Notes: generated by a model not told the origin, from the letters alone. A stretch of DNA of 64,000 nt from a virus (IMGVR_UViG_3300031998_000008:32001-96000), one strand, 5' to 3'; positions 38,189-58,227 are shown, counted from the stretch's first letter. Program-made: numbers and translations.

Positions 38189-38196
38189 CTATTTAT
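38189..38196 (+). promoter_or_regulatory. Putative late promoter motif CTATTTAT
   Basis: 22 nt upstream of the ATG at 38219; heads the tail tube unit. Confidence 0.65.
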
Positions 38197-42821: not shown

Positions 42822-45452
42822 TTACTCATCGAAAGCAACACTTTCAGGATATACAACGAATGTGATTGAAATGTATTCCAATGCAGGTGTTGGTTTAATC
42901 ATAATCTTAGCAGGTAAGATGTGTTGGTCTCTTGTCTCAGGTGTGACTTCTGTCTTAACCCTGTAATCGAAGATACCTCTATTTGACTTAACGTCTGCAA
43001 GGATAGGTTCAACCAAGCCTCTGAATTGTTTTTCAAGAGCATCGTCATATTGTTCAAATATCAAGTGTTTAGCTGCTGATGTGATAAGTTTCTTAACTCT
43101 AATCATAAGTCTTCTTACGTTGATTCTGTTAAGTGGGCTTTCAACATCGTATGCTGTCTTGTTACCCCAAACAATAACACCGTCTTTACCGAATGTCTTA
43201 ATTGGGTTGATTCTATTTTCATAAAGCATGTCTTCGTCATCAAGAGTTGTTTTGAATGCAGCCTTTTCGCAATCAACGATACCACGTGTTGTACCTGCCG
43301 GTGCGAACCATGGGAATGATGTGTTATCTGTTTCTGCAATGTTTCTTACAACATCTTTAGTTGGTGACAAATACAAGTATTGATTTCTAACAGTGTCTTT
43401 GTAAAGAATCCAAGGTGCATATGTGCAAGCATATGAAGAATTGATTTCAGTGTCAGCGAAAGCCATTGCTAATTCATCAGGGTCTTGAATTTCGTAAGGT
43501 GAATTCATGATGTACAAAGCATCACCGCCTCTACCATCTTCAGGGTCTTCAACAACTTCAATTGCTTCCTTTGTCAACAGTGTTTGATTAAACCAATCAA
43601 TACCTGGTGTTACAAAAACGTTAATATCAACATCTTGAGGGTTTGACAATACTTTGTAACCTGCAAGATATGCATAATAGTCACTTGTATTTACATATGA
43701 TGGCAATTTATATTCAACTGCATCTACAAATTTATCGTAACCAATTTCATTAGTACCATAGTTGTTTACATTGTAAGCATCTGTGTTAGTTCTGCTTTCA
43801 CGGTTAATATCCCATCCGTCAAAACCACCATAGAAGCAAACTGTGAACTTACGTAATTTCTCATTCTTGTAGATAGTTTCGTTGATATACTTGGCATCGT
43901 TTTCAAAACGTGCGTTTGTGATTCTTGGCTTATAAGTGTCTGCTGTAACTTTTTCACCTGATACACAATCAAATGTATATTTGTCTTCTTCAATACCGTC
44001 AATGTAAACATTCATGCATTCTTCTGAAGAGAATATACTATCCATATGGAAACCTTTTGTGTAGACAAGGCCAGTTGAAATAACCATGTCACCATTGTCG
44101 TTGTATTTTGGTGTCATTTCATCATCTTCGTAGAATTCTCTACCTTTAAATGTCAAAACATCAGTATCAACATTTGAAATACCAAAATATTGTTTTCTTT
44201 CTTTAATTTTTGGATTATAAACTGTTCTATAAGCAATTGATGGAGCAATTGATTTTCCATAATTTGGTGTTGGGTATCCTAAGAAACCACAAGGAACGCT
44301 ACCTGCCAAATCTTCATCAGTTGCAAGTTCAACTGTAATATACTTTGATTGATTACCATATAATCCATCACTTGTACCTATCTTATATCCGATAAATGAA
44401 GAATCACCTTTTTTCATTGAACATTTGGTGAATTTTTCAAGAACCACAATATTAGCGTCAGTATCATTGAAGTCTCTAACAACAACATCAAATGTACCAG
44501 TAAATGGGTCAATCTTTTCAATTGAAACCTTAACTTGGAAATTTGAAGCATCACCGTCAGAAATTGTCAAGAATCTGAAAAGTCTCTTGATTGAAACGGC
44601 TTGACATGTTGCATTTCCACCATCTCTTGTAAATGTAGTAGCTTCTGAAACAAGCCATGGTGTCAAAGCACATCTGTATTTTCCTCTATAATCAGCATAA
44701 TCTTCTGTATCTAATGCTGTAATAGTGTAATCCATTTTGATTGTATCGCCATCATCCAAAGCATTTTCATAAACTGCTTCAACATAAATGCTACTTAATT
44801 TGTTGTCTTGAGGATTTGAACTGATAACCTTATAAATGTAATCACCATCACGTGGGTCTAATGAAACATTGTAGTATTCAGGTTCGCCAACTGTTGTTTC
44901 AACCTTAATGCACAATTTCTTAGCAACATTCAAAGTTGAAGCTGTTGGTGCTGTTCCACCAGGACAGAATGTAGTATATGTAGTATTGCTATATGGTTTG
45001 ATGCTAACGCTTGTTACAAGTTCGCTAACTGAGTCATTTGATTCACAAATGTCACCACCAATTTGACCCATTACCTTCTTACCTCTAAGAACAATCAAAG
45101 GTTTTCCACCTGTTGTTTCAGCAACCCAACATTTACCTGCGTCATAACCTGAGAAACCAAGAACCCTAACAACATTAAGTCTCTTTGATTTTGTCAAATA
45201 ACTCTTTGCAATATAAGGAAGTTCATACTTTGGTAAGCCAGTGCCTTTGTAAAGTTCGCTTGAAGTACCACCAAAATAGTCAATGAAGTCATTCCAATCG
45301 CTTATTTCAATGTTTTCAAAAGCTGGACCATATAATGTTTCACCAACAAGTCCGAGACTTGTGATACCAAGGCTTTTTACTGAAAAAACAACATCTTTTT
45401 CTTCTGTATAAACGCCTGGAGAAACGTGTCTGCCTTTTGCATTACTTATCAT
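42822..45452 (-). CDS. Tail sheath protein
   Basis: VSPGVYTEE, G.T..GPAFE, PWFAPAG..RG, LYENRINPI, VWGNKT, L.RINVRRL, P...LEYI. Confidence 0.95.
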   Translation of the reverse strand: MISNAKGRHVSPGVYTEEKDVVFSVKSLGITSLGLVGETLYGPAFENIEISDWNDFIDYFGGTSSELYKGTGLPKYELPYIAKSYLTKSKRLNVVRVLGFSGYDAGKCWVAETTGGKPLIVLRGKKVMGQIGGDICESNDSVSELVTSVSIKPYSNTTYTTFCPGGTAPTASTLNVAKKLCIKVETTVGEPEYYNVSLDPRDGDYIYKVISSNPQDNKLSSIYVEAVYENALDDGDTIKMDYTITALDTEDYADYRGKYRCALTPWLVSEATTFTRDGGNATCQAVSIKRLFRFLTISDGDASNFQVKVSIEKIDPFTGTFDVVVRDFNDTDANIVVLEKFTKCSMKKGDSSFIGYKIGTSDGLYGNQSKYITVELATDEDLAGSVPCGFLGYPTPNYGKSIAPSIAYRTVYNPKIKERKQYFGISNVDTDVLTFKGREFYEDDEMTPKYNDNGDMVISTGLVYTKGFHMDSIFSSEECMNVYIDGIEEDKYTFDCVSGEKVTADTYKPRITNARFENDAKYINETIYKNEKLRKFTVCFYGGFDGWDINRESRTNTDAYNVNNYGTNEIGYDKFVDAVEYKLPSYVNTSDYYAYLAGYKVLSNPQDVDINVFVTPGIDWFNQTLLTKEAIEVVEDPEDGRGGDALYIMNSPYEIQDPDELAMAFADTEINSSYACTYAPWILYKDTVRNQYLYLSPTKDVVRNIAETDNTSFPWFAPAGTTRGIVDCEKAAFKTTLDDEDMLYENRINPIKTFGKDGVIVWGNKTAYDVESPLNRINVRRLMIRVKKLITSAAKHLIFEQYDDALEKQFRGLVEPILADVKSNRGIFDYRVKTEVTPETRDQHILPAKIMIKPTPALEYISITFVVYPESVAFDE

Positions 45453-45484: not shown

Positions 45485-45492
45485 ATAAATAG
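45485..45492 (-). promoter_or_regulatory. Putative late promoter motif CTATTTAT
   Basis: 32 nt upstream of the sheath ATG; an oppositely oriented copy sits at 45513-45520. Confidence 0.6.
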
Positions 45493-47409: not shown

Positions 47410-47468
47410 TATTTGTTTTTTTTGGAAAATTTTTGTAAATAATATATTAAGAAAAATTGTATAATTTA

Positions 47469-49511
47469 ATGTATGACACGATAAAAGGTAAAAATGAAGC
47501 CATAGACATATTAAACAATTATAACGGTGAGAATCCTTATTTGCTTAGGCTAAAGAGGGACATTGTTTTATGCCGTAAGACAAACTTGCTTACGGAATAT
47601 GTGATTGAGTACATAAAAAAGAACTGTAACAGGAAGCCTATACAAGTGAATAAGACCATACAAATTGCAGATTGGTATGGAGAGAAACTTAAAAATGATT
47701 ATGAAATTGAATTTATTCCTGAAAAATTAAGGATTTACACATTTTTCGGTGAAACATCAGTTTCTTTTCATTGTACTGTAAGATACAGGCAAAACATGGA
47801 AACTTTAGAACTTTTTTTACCAAAGAAAGCTGTATTAGGAAACTTCTTAATAGGTGATTACCATGAAGTTCAGGTTGATTTTGACCGTTATGATAATTTA
47901 TCAACAGCAAAAGACCCTAATAGAATGTTAAAGCCTCACCAAAAAGAGGCAGTTCAATTCCTTTTACATAGAAAAAAGTGCATTTTAGCTGATGATATGG
48001 GTCTTGGAAAAACTACAGAGTTAGCAGTTGCTTCAATTGAGGGCAATTTTGACTCTGTTTTGGTTATTTGTCCGTCTTCATTAAAGACCAATTGGAGAGA
48101 TGAATTGTTATGGTATGTCAAAGAGAAAGATATTTCTATAATTGATGGTGTTAATGATAAGACCAAGCCAGAATTAGAAAAAATGCTTGGATATGGCGTT
48201 GGAAAATCAGGATTAAAACGTGAACAATTGCTTGAAGAAGCAAAAAATCGTGGAAAATGGGAAGATAACAGATTTGTTATCGTCAATTTCGATATTCTTG
48301 ATGAATTTTATAAGATTCCAAGAACAAGGAGTGCTGAAAATATCAAGAAAGCATATGATGAGAGCCCTATGCTTAGGTATGCCATGAATAAAAAGACATT
48401 ACTTATAATTGATGAGGCACATAGGCTATCAAATTCTGATTCAGATAGATACAAAATAATAAATGACTTTATAAAAAGAGCGAATCCACATAGTATATAC
48501 CTTGCAACAGGTACACCCGTAACAAATAATCCTAAAAACCTTTATTGCTTATTGAAACTTATTGGCGATGACATCACCAATGATTGGCAATTTTATATGG
48601 ATAGGTATTGTGGTGCTATGAAAATTCCTGCAAAGGGAGAAAAAGAAAAATGGAGTAATTTCTTCTTTGAAAAGAAAAAAAGAGAGTATGAAAAAGAGGG
48701 AAAAGTTCCACCAACTACTTGGGGAGAACTTACTTCAAAGGAAAAAGATGAGTTAAAGGAATATATCAACACGAATGCAAGGAAAATCAACATCATCAAA
48801 GATGCAACTAACCTTGAAGAGTTGAAACTTAAACTTTCCCACATTTATTTAAGGCGTACAAAGGAAGATATTTCAGACGGATTGCCAAATAAGACAGTCC
48901 ATGAATTATTCTATGACTTTGACATGAAGCAAGAATTTGAATATGCACGTCTTTGGGAAGAATATGAGGCTGCACAACTTGAATTGGACCCAACAAAGGA
49001 AATCAATAAGGATTTGCTTGAGGGTGCTGTGTATCGTAAATATTGCTCAAATCAAATGATTCCAAATACCATAAAACTTGCTGATGAATTCATAAGCAAA
49101 GGTGAAAAGGTTATAATTGCCACTTGTTATGATGATGAATTGTATCAGTTAAGAGATTATTATGGTGATAAATGTGTTGTATTTAATGGTAAAATGACAC
49201 CAAAGCAAAAAGATGTTGCAAAAGAAGCATTCTTGACTAATCCTGATAAAATGGTCTTCATTGGACAATTGTTTGCGGCAGGTGTTGGACTTAATCTTGT
49301 TGTTTCCAATAAGTTAATATTCAATGACATTGATTATGTTCCAAGTTCTAATAAGCAAATGGAAGATAGAATTTATCGCATTGGGCAAATACATGATGTT
49401 GACATTTATTATCAAATATTTAGAGGAACACAATATGAAAAAATGTGGAATACAGTAATTAGAAAAGAACTAGTTATTAATCAAATTATAAAAAAAGAAA
49501 ACGAAAAATAA
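47469..49511 (+). CDS. SNF2-family helicase/ATPase (SMARCAL1/HARP-like)
   Basis: ILADDMGLGKT, IIDEAH, ATGTP..N, YLRRTK, AAGVGLNL, QMEDRIYRIGQ. Confidence 0.93.
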   Translation: MYDTIKGKNEAIDILNNYNGENPYLLRLKRDIVLCRKTNLLTEYVIEYIKKNCNRKPIQVNKTIQIADWYGEKLKNDYEIEFIPEKLRIYTFFGETSVSFHCTVRYRQNMETLELFLPKKAVLGNFLIGDYHEVQVDFDRYDNLSTAKDPNRMLKPHQKEAVQFLLHRKKCILADDMGLGKTTELAVASIEGNFDSVLVICPSSLKTNWRDELLWYVKEKDISIIDGVNDKTKPELEKMLGYGVGKSGLKREQLLEEAKNRGKWEDNRFVIVNFDILDEFYKIPRTRSAENIKKAYDESPMLRYAMNKKTLLIIDEAHRLSNSDSDRYKIINDFIKRANPHSIYLATGTPVTNNPKNLYCLLKLIGDDITNDWQFYMDRYCGAMKIPAKGEKEKWSNFFFEKKKREYEKEGKVPPTTWGELTSKEKDELKEYINTNARKINIIKDATNLEELKLKLSHIYLRRTKEDISDGLPNKTVHELFYDFDMKQEFEYARLWEEYEAAQLELDPTKEINKDLLEGAVYRKYCSNQMIPNTIKLADEFISKGEKVIIATCYDDELYQLRDYYGDKCVVFNGKMTPKQKDVAKEAFLTNPDKMVFIGQLFAAGVGLNLVVSNKLIFNDIDYVPSSNKQMEDRIYRIGQIHDVDIYYQIFRGTQYEKMWNTVIRKELVINQIIKKENEK

Positions 49512-49539
49512 TACTATTTATATTAAAGACAGTATTATT

Positions 49540-50451
49540 ATGAAAAAAATAAGCTTAGATGAATTTATTAAAAGGTCAAAAAATGTGCATGGTGAAAAAT
49601 ATAGTTATGAAAAATCTGTGTATGTTAATTATGATACAAAATTAGAAATAATTTGTAAAAAACATGGTAGTTTTTGGCAAACACCAGGTAATCATTTAAA
49701 AGGAAAAGGATGTCCTTATTGTAATGGAAACGCTAAATCAAATACTGAAGAGTTTATAAAAAAAGCAAATGATAAATGGGGTGATAAATTTGATTATTCA
49801 TTAGTAAAATACAAAAATAATAATTCAAAAATTTGTATAATAGAAAGAAAAAGTGGTCGTAAATTTTGGCAAACGCCAGCTAATCATTTGCAAGGATATG
49901 ATTGTAGTAATGGTGGAAAACAAAATACTGAAAACTTCATAATAAAAGCATCAGAAATTCATAAATGTAAATATGATTATTCTAAAACTGAATATAAAAC
50001 AGCAAAGGATAAAATAAGTATAATATGTCCAATACATGGCGAATTTTACCAATTACCATATAATCATTTAAAAGGGCAAGGATGTCCAAAATGTATTCAA
50101 AAATCAATTTTAGAAAATAAAATAAAAGAAATACTTGAAAATAATAGAATTATTTTTGAAGAACAAAAAAGATTTAAGTGGCTTGGAAAAAAGAGTTTAG
50201 ATTTTTATTTATCAGATTATAATATTGCAATCGAATGTCAAGGAAAAGAACATTTATATGAAACTGGACAATGGGAACCTTTTGAAATTGTTTTAAAAAG
50301 AGATATAGAAAAATATAATATATGTAAAGAAAATTTTGTAAAAGTTATATATGTAATACCAAATAACGAAAACAAAATTCCTGAATTTTATGATAATAAA
50401 ATAACAATAAGGCTTAAAGATTTTGAAAATTATATAAAAAATGAAAAGTGA
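49540..50451 (+). CDS. Free-standing homing-type endonuclease (DUF723-like Zn repeats + Vsr/PD-(D/E)xK domain)
   Basis: Three YDYS...(C..HG).F.Q.P.NHL.G repeats, then LDFYL...IAIECQG.EH. Very AT-rich; CTATTTAT at 49514-49521. Confidence 0.8.
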   Translation: MKKISLDEFIKRSKNVHGEKYSYEKSVYVNYDTKLEIICKKHGSFWQTPGNHLKGKGCPYCNGNAKSNTEEFIKKANDKWGDKFDYSLVKYKNNNSKICIIERKSGRKFWQTPANHLQGYDCSNGGKQNTENFIIKASEIHKCKYDYSKTEYKTAKDKISIICPIHGEFYQLPYNHLKGQGCPKCIQKSILENKIKEILENNRIIFEEQKRFKWLGKKSLDFYLSDYNIAIECQGKEHLYETGQWEPFEIVLKRDIEKYNICKENFVKVIYVIPNNENKIPEFYDNKITIRLKDFENYIKNEK

Positions 50452-50824
50452 AAAAGTAGGAGAAATAGTAGAAAACAGAAGTGAAAAAGAAATAATTGAA
50501 ACATGGGATAAATTGGGCCTTCTTAAAGACCTTAATGATTCTGAGAAAAGACTTGCTGCAATCTATTATGAAAAGGCAGCATTGGCAATGATTAGTTGGG
50601 ATGAAATAAAGCATGAGTTTGATAACGCCGCATTTGCAATAATTTACAAATTAGCAAAGAGAGGATATAAGTTCGACCATTTCAATATAACAGAAATGTA
50701 TTCGGTTTATTGTAATGAGTATGAAAAAGTGGTTGACCCAAAATTTAAGGATACGGCAGCAAAGGCTGCAAAAGCGACTTGTGATTATTTTTCAAAGAAA
50801 GAAAATAAGCCAAAAATAAAATGA
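50441..50824 (+). CDS. Small protein resembling the major capsid protein N-terminus (paralogue 1)
   Basis: S..VGEI...WDKLGLL..L....K..AA.YYE.AA...F....F.II. Confidence 0.6.
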   Translation: MKSEKVGEIVENRSEKEIIETWDKLGLLKDLNDSEKRLAAIYYEKAALAMISWDEIKHEFDNAAFAIIYKLAKRGYKFDHFNITEMYSVYCNEYEKVVDPKFKDTAAKAAKATCDYFSKKENKPKIK

Positions 50825-51105
50825 AAAAGATAAAATATCACATAGTAAAGTTTGTATTTTCCGTAATTGGATGGTATAAAGCAACTTTTGTATTTAAGGA
50901 AGGCCATAAGTATCTTGGTGGAATGCAGAAGAATGCAGCATCCATATATCGTGGAAACAGGACTTTTTATGAATCATTCAATGCTGTTGAGTCGACATGG
51001 GGCGTATGTGTATTTACAACACGTAATAAAACCTATAAATACTGGGAACTTGGTATTTTTAAATGGATTGAAAATAATGAAATTGAAGAAGTTACGAAAG
51101 TATGA
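50821..51105 (+). CDS. Hypothetical protein
   Basis: 94 aa, with 4-nt overlaps to both neighbours. Confidence 0.6.
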   Translation: MKKIKYHIVKFVFSVIGWYKATFVFKEGHKYLGGMQKNAASIYRGNRTFYESFNAVESTWGVCVFTTRNKTYKYWELGIFKWIENNEIEEVTKV

Positions 51106-51350
51106 CTGAAAAAGAAAAAAATGATTTCATTGATTCAATGATAAAAGTAACATATTGTTCAGATTCAGATGCTTTAGTACAATTAGAAATTAGATTGAAG
51201 CGTACAGCATATTCAATGTTTTTCGGTAGTAAAAGATTAAAAGCACTTGGAATAAACATAGAAGATGCATATGATTTTCGTGAAAAAAACAAGTGGCCAA
51301 ATATTAGCGGCAAGCATAGATTGATAAAAAATTATAACACTTTAAAGTAA
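51102..51350 (+). CDS. Hypothetical protein
   Basis: 82 aa, ATGA overlap with the previous gene. Confidence 0.6.
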   Translation: MTEKEKNDFIDSMIKVTYCSDSDALVQLEIRLKRTAYSMFFGSKRLKALGINIEDAYDFREKNKWPNISGKHRLIKNYNTLK

Positions 51351-51355
51351 CTTTT

Positions 51356-51769
51356 ATGAAAAAAATATCATGGATTGATTATTCAGAATATGAAAAGTTG
51401 CCTGAAAAGCATCATTTGGAATATTGGGATAAGATTTTACGTATAAGAAATTGCTTAGATGACAACGAAAATTCTGCTGAAATATTGGCAAAGTATTTTG
51501 ATATATGCAAAAAATATATTGAAGAACATGATTTAGAAAGTGACGAAGAATGTATATTATTACCGATTGTAACACGTGTTGTTAGATGTGATAAAAAATG
51601 GAAACATGGAGAATTTAACCCATCGAAAATTTTGTCTGTTTATAGAAACAAGAAAACAAAGGTTAAAAGCAAATTTTTCAATGAAATACAACTTCATCAA
51701 ATAGACTCTGAAGCACAGGCTGTACGTGAAACTGCTGATTTTTTTACGATTAATAAGGAAAAATATTGA
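51356..51769 (+). CDS. Small paralogue 2 of the capsid-N-terminus-like family
   Basis: YWDK...AKYFDICKKYIEE...LLPIVTRV...KW.HGEFNP.KI.SV...ID.E..A..ETA.FF. Confidence 0.7.
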   Translation: MKKISWIDYSEYEKLPEKHHLEYWDKILRIRNCLDDNENSAEILAKYFDICKKYIEEHDLESDEECILLPIVTRVVRCDKKWKHGEFNPSKILSVYRNKKTKVKSKFFNEIQLHQIDSEAQAVRETADFFTINKEKY

Positions 51770-51775
51770 ATTGAT

Positions 51776-52183
51776 ATGTTAGTAAGAGATTTTTTTGACC
51801 AAACGGTCAATTTGTACAATGAATGCAAAGACAAATACCATATGGGATATTGGAAAGAAACCCATTTGACTGACGAAGAAGATGAAAAGATGGTTGAAGT
51901 CTATTCAAAGTACCTTGACAAGTGCAAGATATATATAGAAGAAAATGATATACAGGATGACAATTATAATGCTTTGTTGCCAATTGTGTATCGTGTTTTG
52001 AAGAAGGATAAAGAATGGAAAAGTGGGGAATTTGACCCAAAAAAAATAATTTCAGTGTTCACAGACCTTAGAAATCAATTAAATGAACAATTGAAAAAGA
52101 ATCCAATGAATATTGATGATGAATTGGTTGCTTGCGTTGAAACTGCAAGATATTTTACTAAGAGTGATGATATTTTTGATTGA
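51776..52183 (+). CDS. Small paralogue 3 of the same family
   Basis: YWKE...SKYLDKCKIYIEE...LLPIVYRV...EW.SGEFDP.KI.SV...IDDE..A..ETA.YF. Confidence 0.7.
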   Translation: MLVRDFFDQTVNLYNECKDKYHMGYWKETHLTDEEDEKMVEVYSKYLDKCKIYIEENDIQDDNYNALLPIVYRVLKKDKEWKSGEFDPKKIISVFTDLRNQLNEQLKKNPMNIDDELVACVETARYFTKSDDIFD

Positions 52184-52188
52184 ATGAT

Positions 52189-52578
52189 ATGGAAAAATAT
52201 GATATAATAAAAGATTATTTTTTAGTTGAAACTTATAAAGAATATAATTTATCAAAAGAAAAGTTTCATTCAGATTATTGGCGTGAAGCCATTCCTGAAA
52301 TGTTAGATTGTAATAAAAAAGAAGACAAAGATTACATTAATAATGCATCAAGGCATCTTGATAAATGTAGAAGATTTATCTTAAATCACAATTACAAATA
52401 TGAAGAATCATATGCTTTATTAAGAGTTGTTGTTTGTCTTGTTAAAAATAACACATGGCTATATCATTTTAATCCGTATAGAATAATAAGCACATTTAAT
52501 GAAAAATGTAAAAATGAAAATATAAAAATAGATATTTTTGATGAAAATGTGTATTTTGAAGTTGCCAATAATTTATGA
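52189..52578 (+). CDS. Small paralogue 4 of the same family
   Basis: YWRE...SRHLDKCRRFI...ALLRVVVCL...W...FNP.RIIS. Alternative TTG start at 52180. Confidence 0.65.
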   Translation: MEKYDIIKDYFLVETYKEYNLSKEKFHSDYWREAIPEMLDCNKKEDKDYINNASRHLDKCRRFILNHNYKYEESYALLRVVVCLVKNNTWLYHFNPYRIISTFNEKCKNENIKIDIFDENVYFEVANNL

Positions 52579-52772
52579 ATTTTTTTGTAGATTATAGTTG
52601 CGGAATGCAAAGTATTATGTCAATATTTGGTGTTTCGTTTGCAATAATTGAAAGTGGTCCAAATATTAAGGGATATGTTGTTGAAAGGCGTGGCGAAATG
52701 AGAAGAAGACATAGAATTAAAAAGTACATCAACAATAATAATTTTGTAATAAAGTGTGTGAAGGTAGATTGA
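52575..52772 (+). CDS. Hypothetical protein
   Basis: 65 aa, ATGA overlap upstream and 1-nt gap downstream. Confidence 0.5.
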   Translation: MNFFVDYSCGMQSIMSIFGVSFAIIESGPNIKGYVVERRGEMRRRHRIKKYINNNNFVIKCVKVD

Positions 52773-52773
52773 T

Positions 52774-53253
52774 ATGGATGAATATTTGGCATTTGTTGAT
52801 TACATTGGAAGAACAATAGATGGGCAATATATATACAGATTTGACTTTACAGTTGATTCAGATAGTGTATGGGGAGATTATTTCAATGTTACACCAGCTG
52901 GTATAGTTCCGGATTTACAGCCTGACAGGAATTCACTATCCAAGACATGTAAGGTGAATTTTCCTAAAGAAATGCAAATAGCAAAAAAGAACTATTGCTT
53001 TTCAATGCAGGATTGTATAGATGGTATTATACCTGTTGTTTTTTCAGAAATATCTGAAAATTTGGTCGAATATAATGATGGCCCATTATTTTTTAGGTTT
53101 GGAGAGGATTATGAAACTGTGAAAAATACATTGAATTCAATTGGAATTGAAATGTATGACATGGAACTTGTTGAAAAGGGAGATGAAAGCGCAATTGATG
53201 CATTGATTGATAACATGGATTTAATAAATGACGAAGATGGTGGCGCTTTTTAG
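52774..53253 (+). CDS. Hypothetical protein (paralogue of 53439..53837)
   Basis: YIG...DG.Y.Y.F.F......VWG...PD...CFSM....GI. Confidence 0.75.
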   Translation: MDEYLAFVDYIGRTIDGQYIYRFDFTVDSDSVWGDYFNVTPAGIVPDLQPDRNSLSKTCKVNFPKEMQIAKKNYCFSMQDCIDGIIPVVFSEISENLVEYNDGPLFFRFGEDYETVKNTLNSIGIEMYDMELVEKGDESAIDALIDNMDLINDEDGGAF

Positions 53254-53437
53254 TGAAGGCGAATGTAGTGGAAGTGGACAAGGAACCGTATATAGTGGGC
53301 ATGGCTATTTTGAAAGGCATTCTCATGATGGATTCATGTTTAGAGAGCCAAGGCCATACATTGAGTATAAAAGAATGATAAAAAAGGGATTACGTAAATA
53401 TAGATTAGCCCCAAAAAGATTTAATTGGTATTTTTGA
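53228..53437 (+). CDS. Hypothetical protein
   Basis: About 65-69 aa, fills the gap between the two paralogues; start uncertain. Confidence 0.45.
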   Translation: MTKMVALFSEGECSGSGQGTVYSGHGYFERHSHDGFMFREPRPYIEYKRMIKKGLRKYRLAPKRFNWYF

Positions 53438-53438
53438 T

Positions 53439-53837
53439 ATGGAAAAAGAAGATATTTTGAAGTTGGTATATGTAAAATATATTGGTAAAAACACTGATGG
53501 GACATATGTGTATAATTTCTTTTTCAGCGAAACACCTGAATATGTGTGGGGACCTGCATGGGATGTTGATAATCCAAGCAATAATGGTGACATAACACCT
53601 GATTCAACTACATATTCTGTTGTTAAACAGGTTTATACAACACTTCCGTTAAAGACAGCAGAAGAAACTACATGTTATTCAATGGAGTATGCTACTTATG
53701 GAATTTTAGCATTATGTTGGATTGATATTGAAAATCTTGAAGTTTATCCTGAACATGGTAGATTAGCAATGCATTTCAACGATTCTTATTATGAAGTTGA
53801 GGATAAACTTAATCTTTATGGTTGGAATTTTAAATAA
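53439..53837 (+). CDS. Hypothetical protein (paralogue of 52774..53253)
   Basis: YIG...DG.Y.Y.F.F......VWG...PD...CYSM....GI. Confidence 0.75.
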   Translation: MEKEDILKLVYVKYIGKNTDGTYVYNFFFSETPEYVWGPAWDVDNPSNNGDITPDSTTYSVVKQVYTTLPLKTAEETTCYSMEYATYGILALCWIDIENLEVYPEHGRLAMHFNDSYYEVEDKLNLYGWNFK

Positions 53838-53857
53838 TTTTTTGTAAAATATAGAAA

Positions 53858-54172
53858 ATGGAAAAAATGTTAGATAAAGACAAACTTATTTTGGTATTTT
53901 ATATCAATGTTGCTGACATTGATAGAGCAGATGTTATTGAATATTTGAATGATGCAAGAAAAGGTCTTGCTGATTTTCTTGATGAATCAATACTTTCATA
54001 TTTTATTCCTGTTGAGGAAGAGGAAAGTCACCTTGAGTGTATCAATCCTGTAAAACTTGAAGGAACTGAATATGAAGAAGCATTAAAAAAACTTGACGAA
54101 GCAAACAAAAAATTTAGTGAAGTATTAGAAAATTTAACAAATAATAATTTTGACAATGAGTTACAACAATAA
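53858..54172 (+). CDS. Hypothetical protein
   Basis: 104 aa with LILVFYINV...FIPV...ECINP; operonic spacing. Confidence 0.7.
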   Translation: MEKMLDKDKLILVFYINVADIDRADVIEYLNDARKGLADFLDESILSYFIPVEEEESHLECINPVKLEGTEYEEALKKLDEANKKFSEVLENLTNNNFDNELQQ

Positions 54173-54668
54173 CAATGACGAATTTATAGTGTACGAAAAT
54201 CACGTTGCATTTTGGGGTTCTGAGTTTTCAAACTTCTACAAGTGCAATTTTACGTACTTAGGAATTAAGTTCAGTAGTTCCGAACAGGCTTTTATGTATG
54301 AAAAGGCTTTGTATTTCAAAGACAAAGAAACAGCCGCATTAATATTGGAAGCAAAAACTCCGAAAGAGGCAAAGAAACTTGGAAGACAAGTTCGTGGCTT
54401 TGATAGTGACGAATGGTCTGAGGTTTGTGAAGACATTATGTATAATGTTGTTTTGCACAAATTCATCCAAAATGACAAGTTACAAAAACTAATCACAAGA
54501 GAAGACCTTTTGGATAAAACATTCGTTGAGGGCTCTCCATATGACGGAATTTGGGGTGTCAAGATGGCATGGAACAATCCAAAAATTGATGATGAATCAA
54601 ATTGGGAAGGTGAAAATCTTTTGGGTAAGGTACTTGGAAGAGTTAGGGACTATTTATTAAGAGTATAA
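54156..54668 (+). CDS. NADAR family (YbiA/DUF1768) hydrolase
   Basis: FSNFY, SSEQAFM..KA..F.D, P.EAKKLGR.V..F, EGSPYD.IWG, G.NLLG..L..VR. Confidence 0.92.
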   Translation: MSYNNNNDEFIVYENHVAFWGSEFSNFYKCNFTYLGIKFSSSEQAFMYEKALYFKDKETAALILEAKTPKEAKKLGRQVRGFDSDEWSEVCEDIMYNVVLHKFIQNDKLQKLITREDLLDKTFVEGSPYDGIWGVKMAWNNPKIDDESNWEGENLLGKVLGRVRDYLLRV

Positions 54669-54735
54669 AACTTTAATTTTTATCGCTAAAAATAACACGT
54701 AATAAGCATGCCAAGGGATTTGGCTTATATAATTA

Positions 54736-57700
54736 ATGTCAGAAAATTTGAAGAAAAAGGAAATTACTCCTGAAGTAATTAGTACCTTTTTAAATGGTCG
54801 TGATGAACAGACTGGTATAGTAAATCTTGATTACAAATATCAAAACGACTATATAACTGTTTATTATAGGAATGAAAATGATGATAAATGTGTGGCACAA
54901 GAGCCATTTATGCCATTTTTATGGGCAACTGAAAAAGCATGCCGAAAATTATGTGGCGGCGATAGAAATAAAGTAAAAGAACTACTTAAAAGATACAGAA
55001 TATGGGTTAAATCTCTTGATGTAACCAATTCAGAGGGTAAAGTTGTTGAAGAAATTAAAAACGGTTATACATACCTGTTCTATGCAACTACACCAATGAG
55101 TTATTCTGAATTCTTGGACTTTTTCAAAAAAGCAGGAAATGCGGTTTCAAGTAGGAAAAAGAAGGATGATAAGGGTGGTACACAGCAGAAAGACGAAAAA
55201 CAATATTTAACAGTAACACCTAAAGAACAATTCTTAATATCAACAGGAAAAAGATACTTCAAAGGATATGAAGATTATAATGATATTCTTAGGTTGATAT
55301 TCGACTTGGAAACAACAGGCCTTAATACCAAAAAGGATAGAATTGAACAGTTTGGTATTAGGTTCAACAGACAAGTTAAGTATAAAGGAAATTATATTGA
55401 TTTTAGAAAAATATTTACAACTGAAGGTAAAACAAAAGAAGAAAAAGATGCTTCAGAGTTGTATAATATTGTAACTTTCCTTAAAATCATTTATACATTT
55501 AGGCCCGATGTTATTACGGCACATAATGGTGAGGCATTCGACTGGAACATTATTATTGGTGCTTGTGAACGTTTGGGTACTTCTCTTGAAGAATTGTCAA
55601 AGAAATTTTTCGATGGCGAACCAATTAGAAAAGATGAGCGTGAATCAATTCTTAAATTGGGCGGAGAAATTGAAAAATACCAAAAGACAATTGTACCTAA
55701 AACAATTGTTACAGATTCATTACATGCGGTTAGAAGAGCACAGGCCCTTGATTCAAACATGCTTTTCTCAAATTTGAAATATGTAAGTAAGTATTCAGAT
55801 TTGATTAAAGAAGACCGTGTTTATATACCAGGTGATAAGATTTCAGAAATTTGGAATGATACAGTTCGCATGTTTGCAATTAACGATGAGACAGGCGATT
55901 GGTATGTATATGACGAAAACCATGTATGTGAGAGTGAAGAACTGCTACAAAAGAAAGGAAAAGACAATCCAACGTTTGTTCTTTACACAAAGAATAAACT
56001 TTTAGATGGATATAAACTTGTTGATGGCAAATACATTGGACAAAAGTATTTGCTTGATGACTTGTGGGAGTGTGATATGGTTGAACACCGTTATAACACT
56101 CCTAACTTCCTTATTTGTAAAATGATTCCTGTTCCATTTGACAAATGCTGTACTATGGGTACTGCTGGCCAGTGGAAATCAATTATGCTTGCATGGAGTT
56201 ATGAATATAACTTGGCAATTCCTCAATTTTCAGAAAGAAAAACATTTACAGGTGGTCTTTCAAGACTTTTGAAAGTTGGATTTGTTGATAATGTTGCAAA
56301 ATTCGACTACAATTCACTTTATCCTTCAATCATTCTTACTTGGGGTATTAGTGATGCAAAAGACTTGTTACATTCAATGCTTTACTTCTTGGAACACGTA
56401 CTTACTCAACGTGAAAAGTATAAAGGATTGAAGAAAAAGGCAGGTAAAGCAAAAGATAAGTACAAAGAAGAGTATGCTGCTTGCACAGACCCACATCTTA
56501 AAGATGAAATAAATAGGAAAATAATGGAGGCAGCACAGGAAGAATCAGCAAACGATAAGAAACAGTTGCCTTTGAAAATTTTCGGTAACTCATTCTTTGG
56601 GTCATATGGTGCTCCAAACGTATTCCCATGGGCTTCAATTGCTTGTGCTGAAAGAACAACATGCACAGGTAGAATGGCTCTTAGATTGATGATTTATTGG
56701 TTTACTAAGATTGGTTATCAGCCAATTGTTGGTGATACTGATGGTTTTAACTTCCAACTTCCTGATGACGATAAATTCAGATATACAAAGGAAAATCCAT
56801 ATATAAGCCCAGGTCTTTCAAGAGAAACAAAAGAAGGTGTTGAATATGTTGGGTTTAGGGCTGATGTTGCTGAGTTTAACGATTTATTCATGAAAGATTT
56901 CCATTATGGTCCAAACTGCGTTAATAAGATGGGCCTTGGTATTGATGAAGTTGTTGCCGCTACTATTAACTTTAGTAGAAAGAACTATGCTGACTATTTC
57001 CCTGATGAAGAATTTCCAAAGGATGTTAAGATGGTCGGTAATACAATCAAATCAAAGAAAATGCCTGAATATATTTCAAAATTCTTGGAAAGGGGTATTA
57101 GATTATTGCTTAGAAAAAAAGGACAAGAATTTATTGAATCATATTATGATTATATTGAAAAGATTTACAATTATCAGATACCGTTGAAGATGATTGCTTC
57201 AAAAGGTAAGATAAAGAAGTCAATAGAAGAATATATAGAAGACTGTAAGACAATCACAAAAGCAGGTAGGCCGAAATCAAGACAGGCATGGATGGAACTT
57301 GCAATCAAGGAAAATCTTACAGTCAACATGGGAGAAACCATATACTATATTAATATTGGTAAGACAAAATCACAAACAGACGCTAAGAAAGTCACACATT
57401 ATTATGTTGTTGATGGCTTGTTTGGTGATAAGTCTGACCATAGGGTTGCTCTTGAAAAAGAATGGAAAAAAGATAACATTGACGGTAAGTTGGCTCCAAA
57501 AGAACGTGCCTTGTCATTGAATGACTATGTTAAGAAACATCATCCTGACGTTATTATTGAGGATGAGGTTATACTTAACTGTAAGTTGGTCCCAAGAGAA
57601 ATTGTTGATTCTGAAGAAGACATAATGTGTAAAGAGGGTGAAGAATACAATGTACAGAAGTATATTGACCAATTCAACAAGAGAATTACACCTCTTTTGG

Positions 57701-58227
57701 TTTGCTTCAGGTCCGAAATTAGAAATAAAATTTTAATTACAAATCCTGATGACAGGCAGTATTTTACATATGACCAATGTGAATTGTGTAACGGTTTTCC
57801 GAATAAAGAATCAGACCAAGATACATACGAACAACTTATGACATTGGATGATAGGGAAATCCAGTTCTGGATGTCACATCCTGAATGGAAGGTTCCATAT
57901 CTTGAATATTGTGAAATGGATTGGGAAGAAATTCAACGTGATTATCTTGAAAGAATGGAAAAAGAAAAGCAACTTGGTATTGATAAGGTTAAGGCAAAGT
58001 TTGCTGAGATTGTGTTTAATATGACACTTGATGAAATTGAAGACTTTGAAGATGGTGATATGCCAAAGGCAATGCTTGAAATTGTTGATGTGGACCCGAT
58101 TACAGGCAAATTTATGTCAAAGGAATACAAAGATATTGTCATAGGTACAATACTTGATGTGCTTGATGCAAAAGAAGAAAAAATAAACGCACTCGAATTT
58201 GAAAACGAAGTTGAGGCTGAAGTATAA
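54736..58227 (+). CDS. Family B DNA polymerase with 3'-5' exonuclease
   Basis: ExoI FDLETTG, ExoII HNG..FDW, motif A DYNSLYPS, motif B K...NSFFG, motif C GDTDG. Confidence 0.95.
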   Translation: MSENLKKKEITPEVISTFLNGRDEQTGIVNLDYKYQNDYITVYYRNENDDKCVAQEPFMPFLWATEKACRKLCGGDRNKVKELLKRYRIWVKSLDVTNSEGKVVEEIKNGYTYLFYATTPMSYSEFLDFFKKAGNAVSSRKKKDDKGGTQQKDEKQYLTVTPKEQFLISTGKRYFKGYEDYNDILRLIFDLETTGLNTKKDRIEQFGIRFNRQVKYKGNYIDFRKIFTTEGKTKEEKDASELYNIVTFLKIIYTFRPDVITAHNGEAFDWNIIIGACERLGTSLEELSKKFFDGEPIRKDERESILKLGGEIEKYQKTIVPKTIVTDSLHAVRRAQALDSNMLFSNLKYVSKYSDLIKEDRVYIPGDKISEIWNDTVRMFAINDETGDWYVYDENHVCESEELLQKKGKDNPTFVLYTKNKLLDGYKLVDGKYIGQKYLLDDLWECDMVEHRYNTPNFLICKMIPVPFDKCCTMGTAGQWKSIMLAWSYEYNLAIPQFSERKTFTGGLSRLLKVGFVDNVAKFDYNSLYPSIILTWGISDAKDLLHSMLYFLEHVLTQREKYKGLKKKAGKAKDKYKEEYAACTDPHLKDEINRKIMEAAQEESANDKKQLPLKIFGNSFFGSYGAPNVFPWASIACAERTTCTGRMALRLMIYWFTKIGYQPIVGDTDGFNFQLPDDDKFRYTKENPYISPGLSRETKEGVEYVGFRADVAEFNDLFMKDFHYGPNCVNKMGLGIDEVVAATINFSRKNYADYFPDEEFPKDVKMVGNTIKSKKMPEYISKFLERGIRLLLRKKGQEFIESYYDYIEKIYNYQIPLKMIASKGKIKKSIEEYIEDCKTITKAGRPKSRQAWMELAIKENLTVNMGETIYYINIGKTKSQTDAKKVTHYYVVDGLFGDKSDHRVALEKEWKKDNIDGKLAPKERALSLNDYVKKHHPDVIIEDEVILNCKLVPREIVDSEEDIMCKEGEEYNVQKYIDQFNKRITPLLVCFRSEIRNKILITNPDDRQYFTYDQCELCNGFPNKESDQDTYEQLMTLDDREIQFWMSHPEWKVPYLEYCEMDWEEIQRDYLERMEKEKQLGIDKVKAKFAEIVFNMTLDEIEDFEDGDMPKAMLEIVDVDPITGKFMSKEYKDIVIGTILDVLDAKEEKINALEFENEVEAEV

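Follow-up and report, generated by a model that had tools for sequence, protein, structure and literature searches.

We analysed a stretch of viral DNA of 64,000 nucleotides (IMGVR_UViG_3300031998_000008:32001-96000; hereafter the window), which comprises bases 32001-96000 of a 207,929-bp IMG/VR virus record with an estimated completeness of ~56%. The record derives from a large uncultured T4-type phage with a low GC content and a contractile tail, which encodes sheath and baseplate proteins, a family-B DNA polymerase (PolB), a UvsX-like recombinase, an NrdD-like reductase and a major capsid protein (MCP) of the gp23 type. The subject of this study is a set of four small open reading frames (ORFs) in the window, p1 to p4, which are located between the genes for an SNF2 helicase and PolB. 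Sequence comparison identifies p1-p4 as members, expanded in this lineage, of a family of small phage proteins that has not been catalogued and that originated from a gp23-type MCP.

The four ORFs are embedded in a string of genes on the plus strand that runs from the SNF2 helicase gene to the PolB gene (47457-58227; PHROG and Pfam assignments). The SNF2 helicase gene (47457-49511, +) is followed by the gene of an HNH homing endonuclease (49540-50451, +; likewise a PHROG/Pfam assignment), which lies between the SNF2 gene and p1. The first of the four ORFs, p1 (50441-50824, +), encodes 127 amino acids (aa), belongs to subfamily A and is the most MCP-like member in the window. Subfamily B is represented by p2 (51356-51769, +; 137 aa) and p3 (51776-52183, +; 135 aa), and p4 (52180-52578, +; 132 aa) is a diverged member. 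The start codon of p4 is a TTG that overlaps the stop codon of p3, with an ATG three codons downstream. After p4, the plus strand continues with a 65-aa ORF and two paralogues (159 and 132 aa), which are followed by a 104-aa ORF and the genes for a NADAR protein and PolB. In the stretch that begins with the HNH gene and ends with the 159-aa gene, the distance between adjacent genes does not exceed 6 nt, unless they overlap.

The initial annotation of this DNA had described p1-p4 as an array of four. The array is not contiguous, as two unrelated small ORFs of 94 and 82 aa (50821-51105 and 51102-51350, both +) split p1 from p2-p4. At both ends, they share start- and stop-codon overlaps with the adjoining genes and form part of the same translationally coupled string. 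Both are conserved in relatives; neither matched the hidden Markov model (HMM) of the family described below or Pfam, and weak PHROG matches were found for the 82-aa ORF only. The four ORFs had also been placed away from structural genes, which is correct for the head genes, as the MCP gene lies outside the window, but not for the tail sheath gene (42822-45452, minus strand), which is found nearby.

As had been noticed from the sequence, p1-p4 are intact ORFs of 127-137 aa with a shared motif that is visible in their alignment. Pairwise BLASTP comparisons were strongest for p2 and p3 (38% identity, E = 6e-26), followed by p3-p4 (E = 6e-12), p2-p4 (E = 9e-9) and p1-p2 (E = 9e-7), while p1-p3 yielded an E-value of only 0.067. 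These values agree with the earlier impression that p2 and p3 are the closest paralogues and that p1 and p4 are more diverged. The two types are bridged by members of related phages, for example by a 126-aa protein of locus L004, which matched each of them at ~1e-7, and an hhalign comparison of the p1-type set versus the p2-p4-type set gave a probability of 97.5% (E = 7e-12, 85 columns). On these alignments, p1-p4 are members of one family.

A wide-family HMM was built from 161 members. It recognised p1 (E = 1.4e-31), p2 (E = 8e-26) and p3 (E = 4e-25), and also p4, with an E-value of 2.7e-11 that covers model positions 3-106 of 145 only. Similarly, p1, p2 and p3 matched the family profile over its full length, and coverage was partial for p4. 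The profile has ~125 positions and is characterised by the elements W..LG.LEGL, A..fEkmA.YL, a helix of the FPIIRR type, F.P..i and iD.EAE.ca...f. It was searched against 1.84 billion representative proteins without a length filter, at a cut-off of E <= 1e-3. In total, 171 representative clusters matched the profile, nearly all of them 100-190 aa long, and the lengths of the members ranged only from 105 to 190 aa. No significant match in Pfam or PHROGs was obtained for p1-p4 or for 44 family members, and PADLOC returned only single-member matches (E = 7e-4 to 9e-3), which we read as chance. Neither the DNA of the p1-p4 locus nor the proteins p1, p3 and P0041, an MCP-like member, had a match among 50,697 GenBank phage records in DNA and protein searches. 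Additional hidden family copies were sought in the source genome as well, and none were found in the 208-kb record (~56% complete).

Some members are natural tandem fusions with two to four family domains per chain (P0011, 280 aa; P0052, 229 aa; P0066, 252 aa; P0061 of locus L095, 382 aa). P0011 begins with a p3-type domain and carries one of the p1 type behind it. Such fusions hint that separate paralogues work side by side.

The phage's own MCP gene is located 44 kb away, outside the window (genome positions 127047-128987, minus strand), and encodes a protein of 646 aa with a Pfam Gp23 match of E = 1.9e-64. We compared p1 with all 1191 ORFs of the genome. The matches ranked in the order p1 itself, p2 and the MCP, which makes the MCP the best match outside the family; residues 1-71 of p1 aligned with residues 5-81 of the MCP at 31% identity (E = 0.008). 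The Smith-Waterman score of p1 and the MCP was 72, versus 34 +/- 4.8 for 500 shuffles (z = 7.9). Furthermore, hhalign was run against a profile of 75 MCPs of the same phage group, and returned a probability of 97.4% for subfamily A, the p1-type members (E = 1.5e-11, 60 columns), and of 96.2% for the whole family. In the library of 1.84 billion proteins, the family profile also matched residues 15-85 of a protein of 597 aa (E = 9e-5), which is itself a Pfam Gp23 MCP. The wide-family HMM scored the phage's own MCP at E = 3e-21, better than p4, and beyond the family and the MCP no other ORF of the genome was matched even at E <= 10. The same HMM detected the MCP N-terminus in 10 out of 10 related jumbo genomes (273-412 kb), as well as in the cultured phages Mel-JY01 (Microcystis) and RM378 (Rhodothermus) and in a cultured phage of Flavobacterium, and gave no match to the MCP N-terminus of T4.

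The resemblance of p1 to the MCP N-terminus, which the initial annotation had proposed, is therefore borne out as homology by the genome alignment, hhalign, the library profile search and the HMM. The MCP pattern on which that proposal relied proved accurate, as the 75 MCPs share SG.VGNI...W..LGF..GL...KEN.A.LYEN.A...SGSFETVVFPI.RRV. Most family members keep the conserved MCP residues almost letter for letter (W..LG.LEGL, FET.VFPIIRR). The suggested correspondence of LLPIV.RV with the FPIVRRV helix of the MCP is likewise found in p2 and p3, where this segment (LLPIVYRV in p3) aligns in register with FPIIRRV. The recommended profile comparison with gp23-type MCPs and alignment to the own MCP hence gave a significant result for the p1 type, and the link of p2-p4 to the MCP is transitive, via subfamily A (E = 7e-12). 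From these comparisons, p1-type members can be regarded as homologous to the MCP N-terminus, and we are almost certain that p1-p4 and their family descend from a gp23-type MCP. None of p1-p4 or of the 44 family members reached the Pfam model PF07068, which stands for the HK97-fold body (127-137 aa for p1-p4 versus 646 aa for the MCP); this model begins only behind the propeptide, at about MCP residue 69, and most of the shared stretch precedes its start.

The family covers approximately residues 15-94 of the MCP, which comprise two propeptide helices and the FETVVFPIIRRV helix, i.e. the first helix of the mature N-arm. The latter aligns with 'PAVMGMVRRAI' of T4. In T4 gp23, the region before the Pfam model is a propeptide that is removed at Glu65. 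In the MCPs of the present group, Glu60 is invariant in an L-x-E context (26 MCPs), and a gp21-type protease gene is located two genes upstream of the MCP gene; MCP residues 1-60 are therefore probably a propeptide. According to the initial annotation, the four proteins resemble only the MCP's N-terminal end. The N-terminal part of this statement stands, but the last helix of the family matches a helix of the P-domain as well. When the C-terminal half of the family was used alone, hhalign placed it at MCP residues 431-455 (NIDAEAELTALLSEQIAAEI; E = 6.9e-6, probability 84.6%), with the next placement at E = 0.57, and the wide-family HMM showed a second, weak domain in which family positions 100-131 match MCP residues 427-459. 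The matched segment falls within the one helix in the MCP model that spans 42 residues (H425-466) and aligns to 'DADAELSGILATEIMLEINREVV' of T4 gp23, which we take to be the long spine helix of the P-domain. The start of this spine helix reads NIDAEAEL, and p4 is without most of the last helix of the family.

The family has no E-loop, no A-domain, no P-domain sheet and no strand behind the RRV helix. In the MCP, this strand (SKLLANDIVSVQAMN.P.GKLF) follows the N-arm helix, joins the capsid lattice and is invariant in 26 MCPs; its place in the family is taken by an unrelated, family-specific linker helix. As read from these alignments, the family is an internally deleted mini-MCP that consists of the propeptide, the first N-arm helix, the linker helix and the start of the spine helix. 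Because the lattice strand, the MCP body and the probable cleavage site are all missing, p1-p4 are unable to form a shell and probably do not undergo the maturation cleavage of the MCP. Processing of p1-p4 in the manner of the MCP was considered and rejected, as the (L/I)-x-E site found at a conserved position in T4-type prohead-protease substrates (gp23, gp24, IPs, Alt) is not conserved in the family; scattered I-x-E triplets elsewhere in the proteins, e.g. IVE at p1 residues 9-11, are not conserved either. Upstream of the MCP gene, the gp21-type protease gene is accompanied by an acidic ORF of 597 aa, an arrangement that is also found in T4. This ORF (genome positions 129037-130830, minus strand; locus L091:3038-4831) is located between the gp21-like protease and MCP genes. 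Its product is extremely acidic (pI 4.2) and of low complexity, with a helical C-terminus that is rich in lysine; it contains eleven (L/I)-x-E triplets and had no PHROG match. It is a credible scaffold, and probably represents the scaffolding protein of this phage.

AlphaFold2 predicted p1 (from 16 sequences) as a compact domain of five helices, at residues 15-24, 33-52, 60-73, 83-97 and 105-121, with a mean local confidence (pLDDT) of 85.2 and a predicted template-modelling score (pTM) of 0.79. Helices 1-3 and 5 align with helices 9-31, 41-62, 70-87 and 425-466 of the MCP model; this model, which spans the entire MCP, was of low quality (pLDDT 56.7) and served for helix positions only. A Foldseek search of the PDB with the p1 model returned nothing at E <= 0.001. 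The BFVD fold search had a sole match, to a probable family member: a protein of 166 aa, as yet uncharacterised, from the gut myovirus 'Myoviridae sp. ctPuP5'. The highest Z of a wide VIA-align search was 6.5, for RabGAP TBC domains, a value that does not exceed the noise of helical bundles, and a feature search of the ESM Atlas gave no usable match. By shape, the best match in the ESM Atlas was a viral cluster of which 68% of the members are Pfam Gp23 proteins, a weak similarity with TM-scores of 0.40/0.43 that involves p1 residues 13-76 and agrees with the sequence comparisons. When p1 was predicted in complex with the full-length MCP, the score was 0.00 and no answer was obtained, which counts neither for nor against binding.

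The motif CTATTTAT was used to assess the expression class of the four genes. It occurs in 47 copies in the genome, and most of the copies that precede a gene are found 16-57 nt before its start. The genes concerned include the MCP gene, the sheath gene and several ORFs of the head and tail modules. The motif is a plausible candidate for the late promoter of this phage group. Copies in the window are found, for example, at 45485, 47273, 42740 and 35209 on the minus strand and at 38189, 49514, 54650 and 63396 on the plus strand. No copy precedes p1-p4, either here or in close relatives; the nearest ones lie in front of the HNH gene (49514) and in front of PolB (54650). In more distant phages, the motif was uninformative. 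Since the gene string leaves no room for internal promoters, p1-p4 would most simply be co-transcribed with the helicase and polymerase genes.

The survey of relatives that had been recommended revealed a variation in copy number. Between the SNF2 gene and the 159/132-aa pair, the window contains four copies, two loci contain three (L004, L007), two contain one (L003, L009) and two contain none (L005, L010), and a fused two-domain protein of 280 aa occupies this position in L006 and L008. Four close strains, in which PolB is 99% identical where the contig reaches it, carry p1, p2 and p3 and lack p4 and the HNH gene; orthologues of p4 (P0004 and P0005) were found on other contigs. In more distant phages, members reside in an insertion within a baseplate operon, and an uncultured phage of 484 kb has one family member. 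In a tree of the 161 members, p2-p4 belong to a group of 12 sequences and p1 to a group of 6; these two clades are nested within a single clade of 32 members (support 0.97). The 32-member clade holds the copies of the SNF2-PolB region, and its composition indicates a local radiation. At two loci of distant phages (L092:6499-8904 and L093:5540-7393), a large ORF without a known family (617-801 aa) is overlapped at its start by the family member, and both are inserted between baseplate genes. The product of this large ORF is a possible functional partner of the family member.

The ratio of non-synonymous to synonymous substitution rates (dN/dS), calculated against close strains, differed among the paralogues. 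It was 0.19-0.25 for p1 and 0.10-0.19 for p3, and these two genes are under purifying selection. For p2, it was 0.63-3.0 across four close strains, on small counts. Compared with locus L099, p2 has 13 amino-acid differences, all of which fall in the first 76 residues, i.e. in the MCP-like half. In the adjoining core genes (SNF2, PolB, the 159/132-aa pair, and NADAR where orthologous), dN/dS was 0-0.18. Hence, p2 is clearly less constrained than its neighbours; positive selection is not established on such small counts.

Other genes of this region showed features of their own. The 159/132-aa pair (52774-53253 and 53439-53837, +) consists of paralogues with mutual E-values of ~1e-14 to 1e-18 and a dN/dS of ~0-0.18. 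At least one of the two, and usually both, is present between SNF2 and PolB in every relative examined, and neither had a Pfam or PHROG match. The NADAR-domain protein (PF08719; PHROG 1017; 54150-54668, +) is encoded in the same operon directly before PolB. Its gene is 99%, 80% or 63% identical among strains whose neighbouring genes are 98-100% identical, a pattern that suggests allele replacement. As NADAR domains reverse ADP-ribosylation, this gene may be a counter-defence gene. The HNH gene, which is missing in the four close strains, is not the only mobile element of the region: in relatives among loci L004-L008 and L010, PolB is split into two to three pieces by HNH ORFs, and some relatives have an insertion of ~350 aa in the SNF2 gene. 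The region is a hotspot for mobile endonucleases or inteins.

What the family does, including any binding to a partner, we can only infer, by analogy with better-studied phages. Binding of the scaffold by the N-terminus of the capsid protein is common to P22, T7 and 80alpha (PMC6813328; PMC5644958), and the elements kept by the family would correspond to the scaffold-binding parts in the procapsids of SPP1 and 80alpha. Because the retained parts bind the scaffold in other phages, we favour a phage-internal partner in the first place, and because the family keeps just the scaffold-facing elements of the MCP, binding to the prohead core is what parsimony would lead one to expect. We tentatively propose that p1-p4 bind the prohead core by competitive mimicry of the MCP N-terminus, a reading that is possible yet far from assured. 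p1-p4 would then be free-standing replicas of the inner, scaffold-facing module of the MCP precursor, and would bind the scaffold or another core protein at the site of an MCP N-terminus. As a result of this docking, they could enter proheads as dispensable internal cargo or tune the assembly process. In T4, variable internal proteins enter the prohead via a targeting tag, by a mechanism that is still called mysterious (PMC9958956).

Several observations weigh against such a docking. Most family members are acidic (median pI 4.9), the match of the family to the spine helix extends over 25 columns only, and p2-p4 alone have drifted so far that their comparison with the MCP, in the same register, gives an E-value of 0.005 and a probability of 7%. 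T4 internal proteins are processed, whereas [LIVM]-x-E at the site aligned with the MCP occurs in 13 of the 161 members and in none of p1-p4. A location in the helicase-polymerase operon without a late-type motif is easier to reconcile with an early function than with a part of the head, and fast change in the MCP-like half of p2 is unexpected for a protein that has to fit a conserved phage partner. Free-standing members were present in 2 of the 10 related jumbo genomes, at a different locus, and such sporadic occurrence is more typical of conflict genes. p1-p4 might also be seen as immune decoys, the main idea of the initial annotation, that are expressed along with the replication genes and ahead of the MCP, and that occupy host sensors or sensor cofactors without activating them. 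The sensors would recognise the invariant N-terminal part of new, unassembled MCP, and the diverged copies would cover sensor variants. The copy number of 0-4 in close relatives, the variable presence of p4 among strains with 99% identical PolB and the occurrence of the family in three different genomic contexts reveal an accessory, fast-turnover behaviour that fits a role in conflict. The raised dN/dS of p2, with its differences to L099 in the MCP-like half, the small size and acidity of p1-p4, and their early or middle operon position beside the NADAR gene and homing endonucleases point in the same direction. Moreover, the mimicked segment is near-invariant among MCPs with an overall identity of only 50%, which would leave the phage hardly any chance to escape from a sensor by mutation. 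Systems that sense the MCP are widespread and bind MCP monomers, as reported for Avs7 and Dsr1, with EF-Tu (bioRxiv 10.64898/2026.01.04.697583), and Lit acts with the Gol region of gp23 and EF-Tu (PMC3014915). Conversely, there is no known sensor for the mimicked region in the host and no link of p1-p4 to any host factor, and our searches of the literature yielded no phage-encoded decoy made of an MCP fragment and no capsid-fragment mimic. Avs7 envelops the whole MCP fold, of which p1-p4 hold a small part, and some members are encoded inside baseplate operons and not in early regions. The strand after the RRV helix, which we take to be the core of the Gol region, is missing in the family. A decoy of the Lit/Gol type is unlikely for this reason. 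On balance, immune decoys seem unlikely to us, though with a real chance of being the answer, and we would be somewhat surprised if early, diversifying mini-copies of the invariant MCP N-terminal module indeed blinded capsid-sensing immune receptors (Avs7, Dsr1, CapRel or Lit-like).

The resemblance to the MCP might also be a matter of ancestry only, if the MCP-derived helical domain was recruited long ago for a non-capsid job such as host takeover or the regulation of replication. That p2-p4 alone no longer resemble the MCP (E = 0.005) and that the conserved charged MCP residues E71, R79 and R80 are partly replaced in p1-p4 would follow naturally, and the probable co-transcription with replication genes and the separate 32-member clade formed by the SNF2-PolB copies within the 161 sequences are in line with such a recruitment. 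We nevertheless find it doubtful, as the near-literal MCP residues in most members argue for continued selection on a shared surface, and searches of Pfam, PHROG, PADLOC and folds found no similarity to any other functional family. Another phage-internal partner than the core would be the MCP itself: p1-p4 could pair with its N-terminal module or cap assembly interfaces, either as a holdase or timer or as a dominant-negative poison for the capsids of co-infecting relatives. Homologous domains often heterodimerise, the tandem fusions of two to four domains (280, 229, 252 and 382 aa) suggest side-by-side working, and assembly redirection has precedents in Ccm of SaPIbov5 (PMC8569155) and CpmB of SaPI1 (PMC5644958). 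Yet, a poison could not tell the phage's own capsids from those of a competitor, as the MCP segment is almost invariant in the phage group, and a core chaperone should not be lacking in 8 of the 10 related genomes, which makes binding to the MCP improbable. Finally, the truncated p4, which is dispensable among strains, the relaxed constraint on p2 and the adjoining homing endonucleases, which could promote illegitimate duplication, would be expected of functionless remnants of partial MCP duplications in the course of decay. Intact frames and a conserved length across 171 clusters, dN/dS values of 0.1-0.25 for p1 and p3, the confident and compact fold of p1, and a family-specific linker helix and internal deletion common to all members render such decay very improbable, and largely refute it for p1-p3.

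Both the recruitment of proteins to the scaffolding core of T4-type proheads and the contact between propeptide and core are still unresolved (PMC9958956). The family offers natural, soluble 15-kDa replicas of the MCP elements concerned, predicted to fold well, which would be a handy probe of the interaction between propeptide and core, and which could possibly be used as a natural packaging tag. If p1-p4 act on the host, they would represent a new principle of countering defence, whereby a conserved structural protein is masked by the virus through copies of a part of it. If they are decoys, they would be a first example of a trigger that is mimicked by one of its own fragments. Furthermore, at least 171 sequence clusters that are not covered by Pfam or PHROGs gain an evolutionary origin and a testable hypothesis.

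Among known systems, T4-type gp23 (PF07068; PDB 5VF3, 6UZC, 8GMO) is the homologue of the family in its propeptide helices, first N-arm helix and spine-helix start, but the family proteins remain below the Pfam model and are without the shell-forming body and the invariant Glu of the protease site. The T4 internal proteins IPI, IPII and IPIII, along with other core cargo that bears a capsid-targeting sequence, are similarly small, dispensable, variable between relatives and encoded outside the head-gene cluster, and have been proposed to enter the prohead by binding to the scaffolding core (PMC9958956; PMC5694885). In contrast to the T4 tag of ~10 residues, which is cut at (L/I)-x-E, the present family consists of a whole MCP-derived domain in which the site is unconserved, and its packaging is a proposal only. 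T4 gene 61.1 was considered as a family member and dismissed, as the wide-family HMM gave no real match to its 54-aa product. Ccm (SaPIbov5) and CpmB (SaPI1) also derive from or imitate a head-assembly component, which they displace in procapsid assembly (PMC8569155; PMC5644958). However, Ccm is a satellite-encoded full homologue with the HK97 fold that joins the shell, whereas p1-p4 are fragments of an MCP in the phage's own replication operon, and CpmB, from a satellite parasite of a helper phage, imitates the C-terminus of the scaffold, whereas p1-p4 replicate elements of the MCP that would dock to the scaffold. By their sequences, p1-p4 are thus neither MCPs nor processed core proteins of the T4 type nor satellite proteins of the Ccm type. 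In capsid proteins of the HK97 type, the delta domain forms a helical region at the N-terminal end of the precursor; it lies inside the procapsid and is removed by the prohead protease, which matches the role proposed for MCP residues 1-60 of the present phage. Unlike p1-p4, which are encoded by separate genes next to a separate scaffold candidate, the delta domain is part of the MCP and itself serves as the scaffold.

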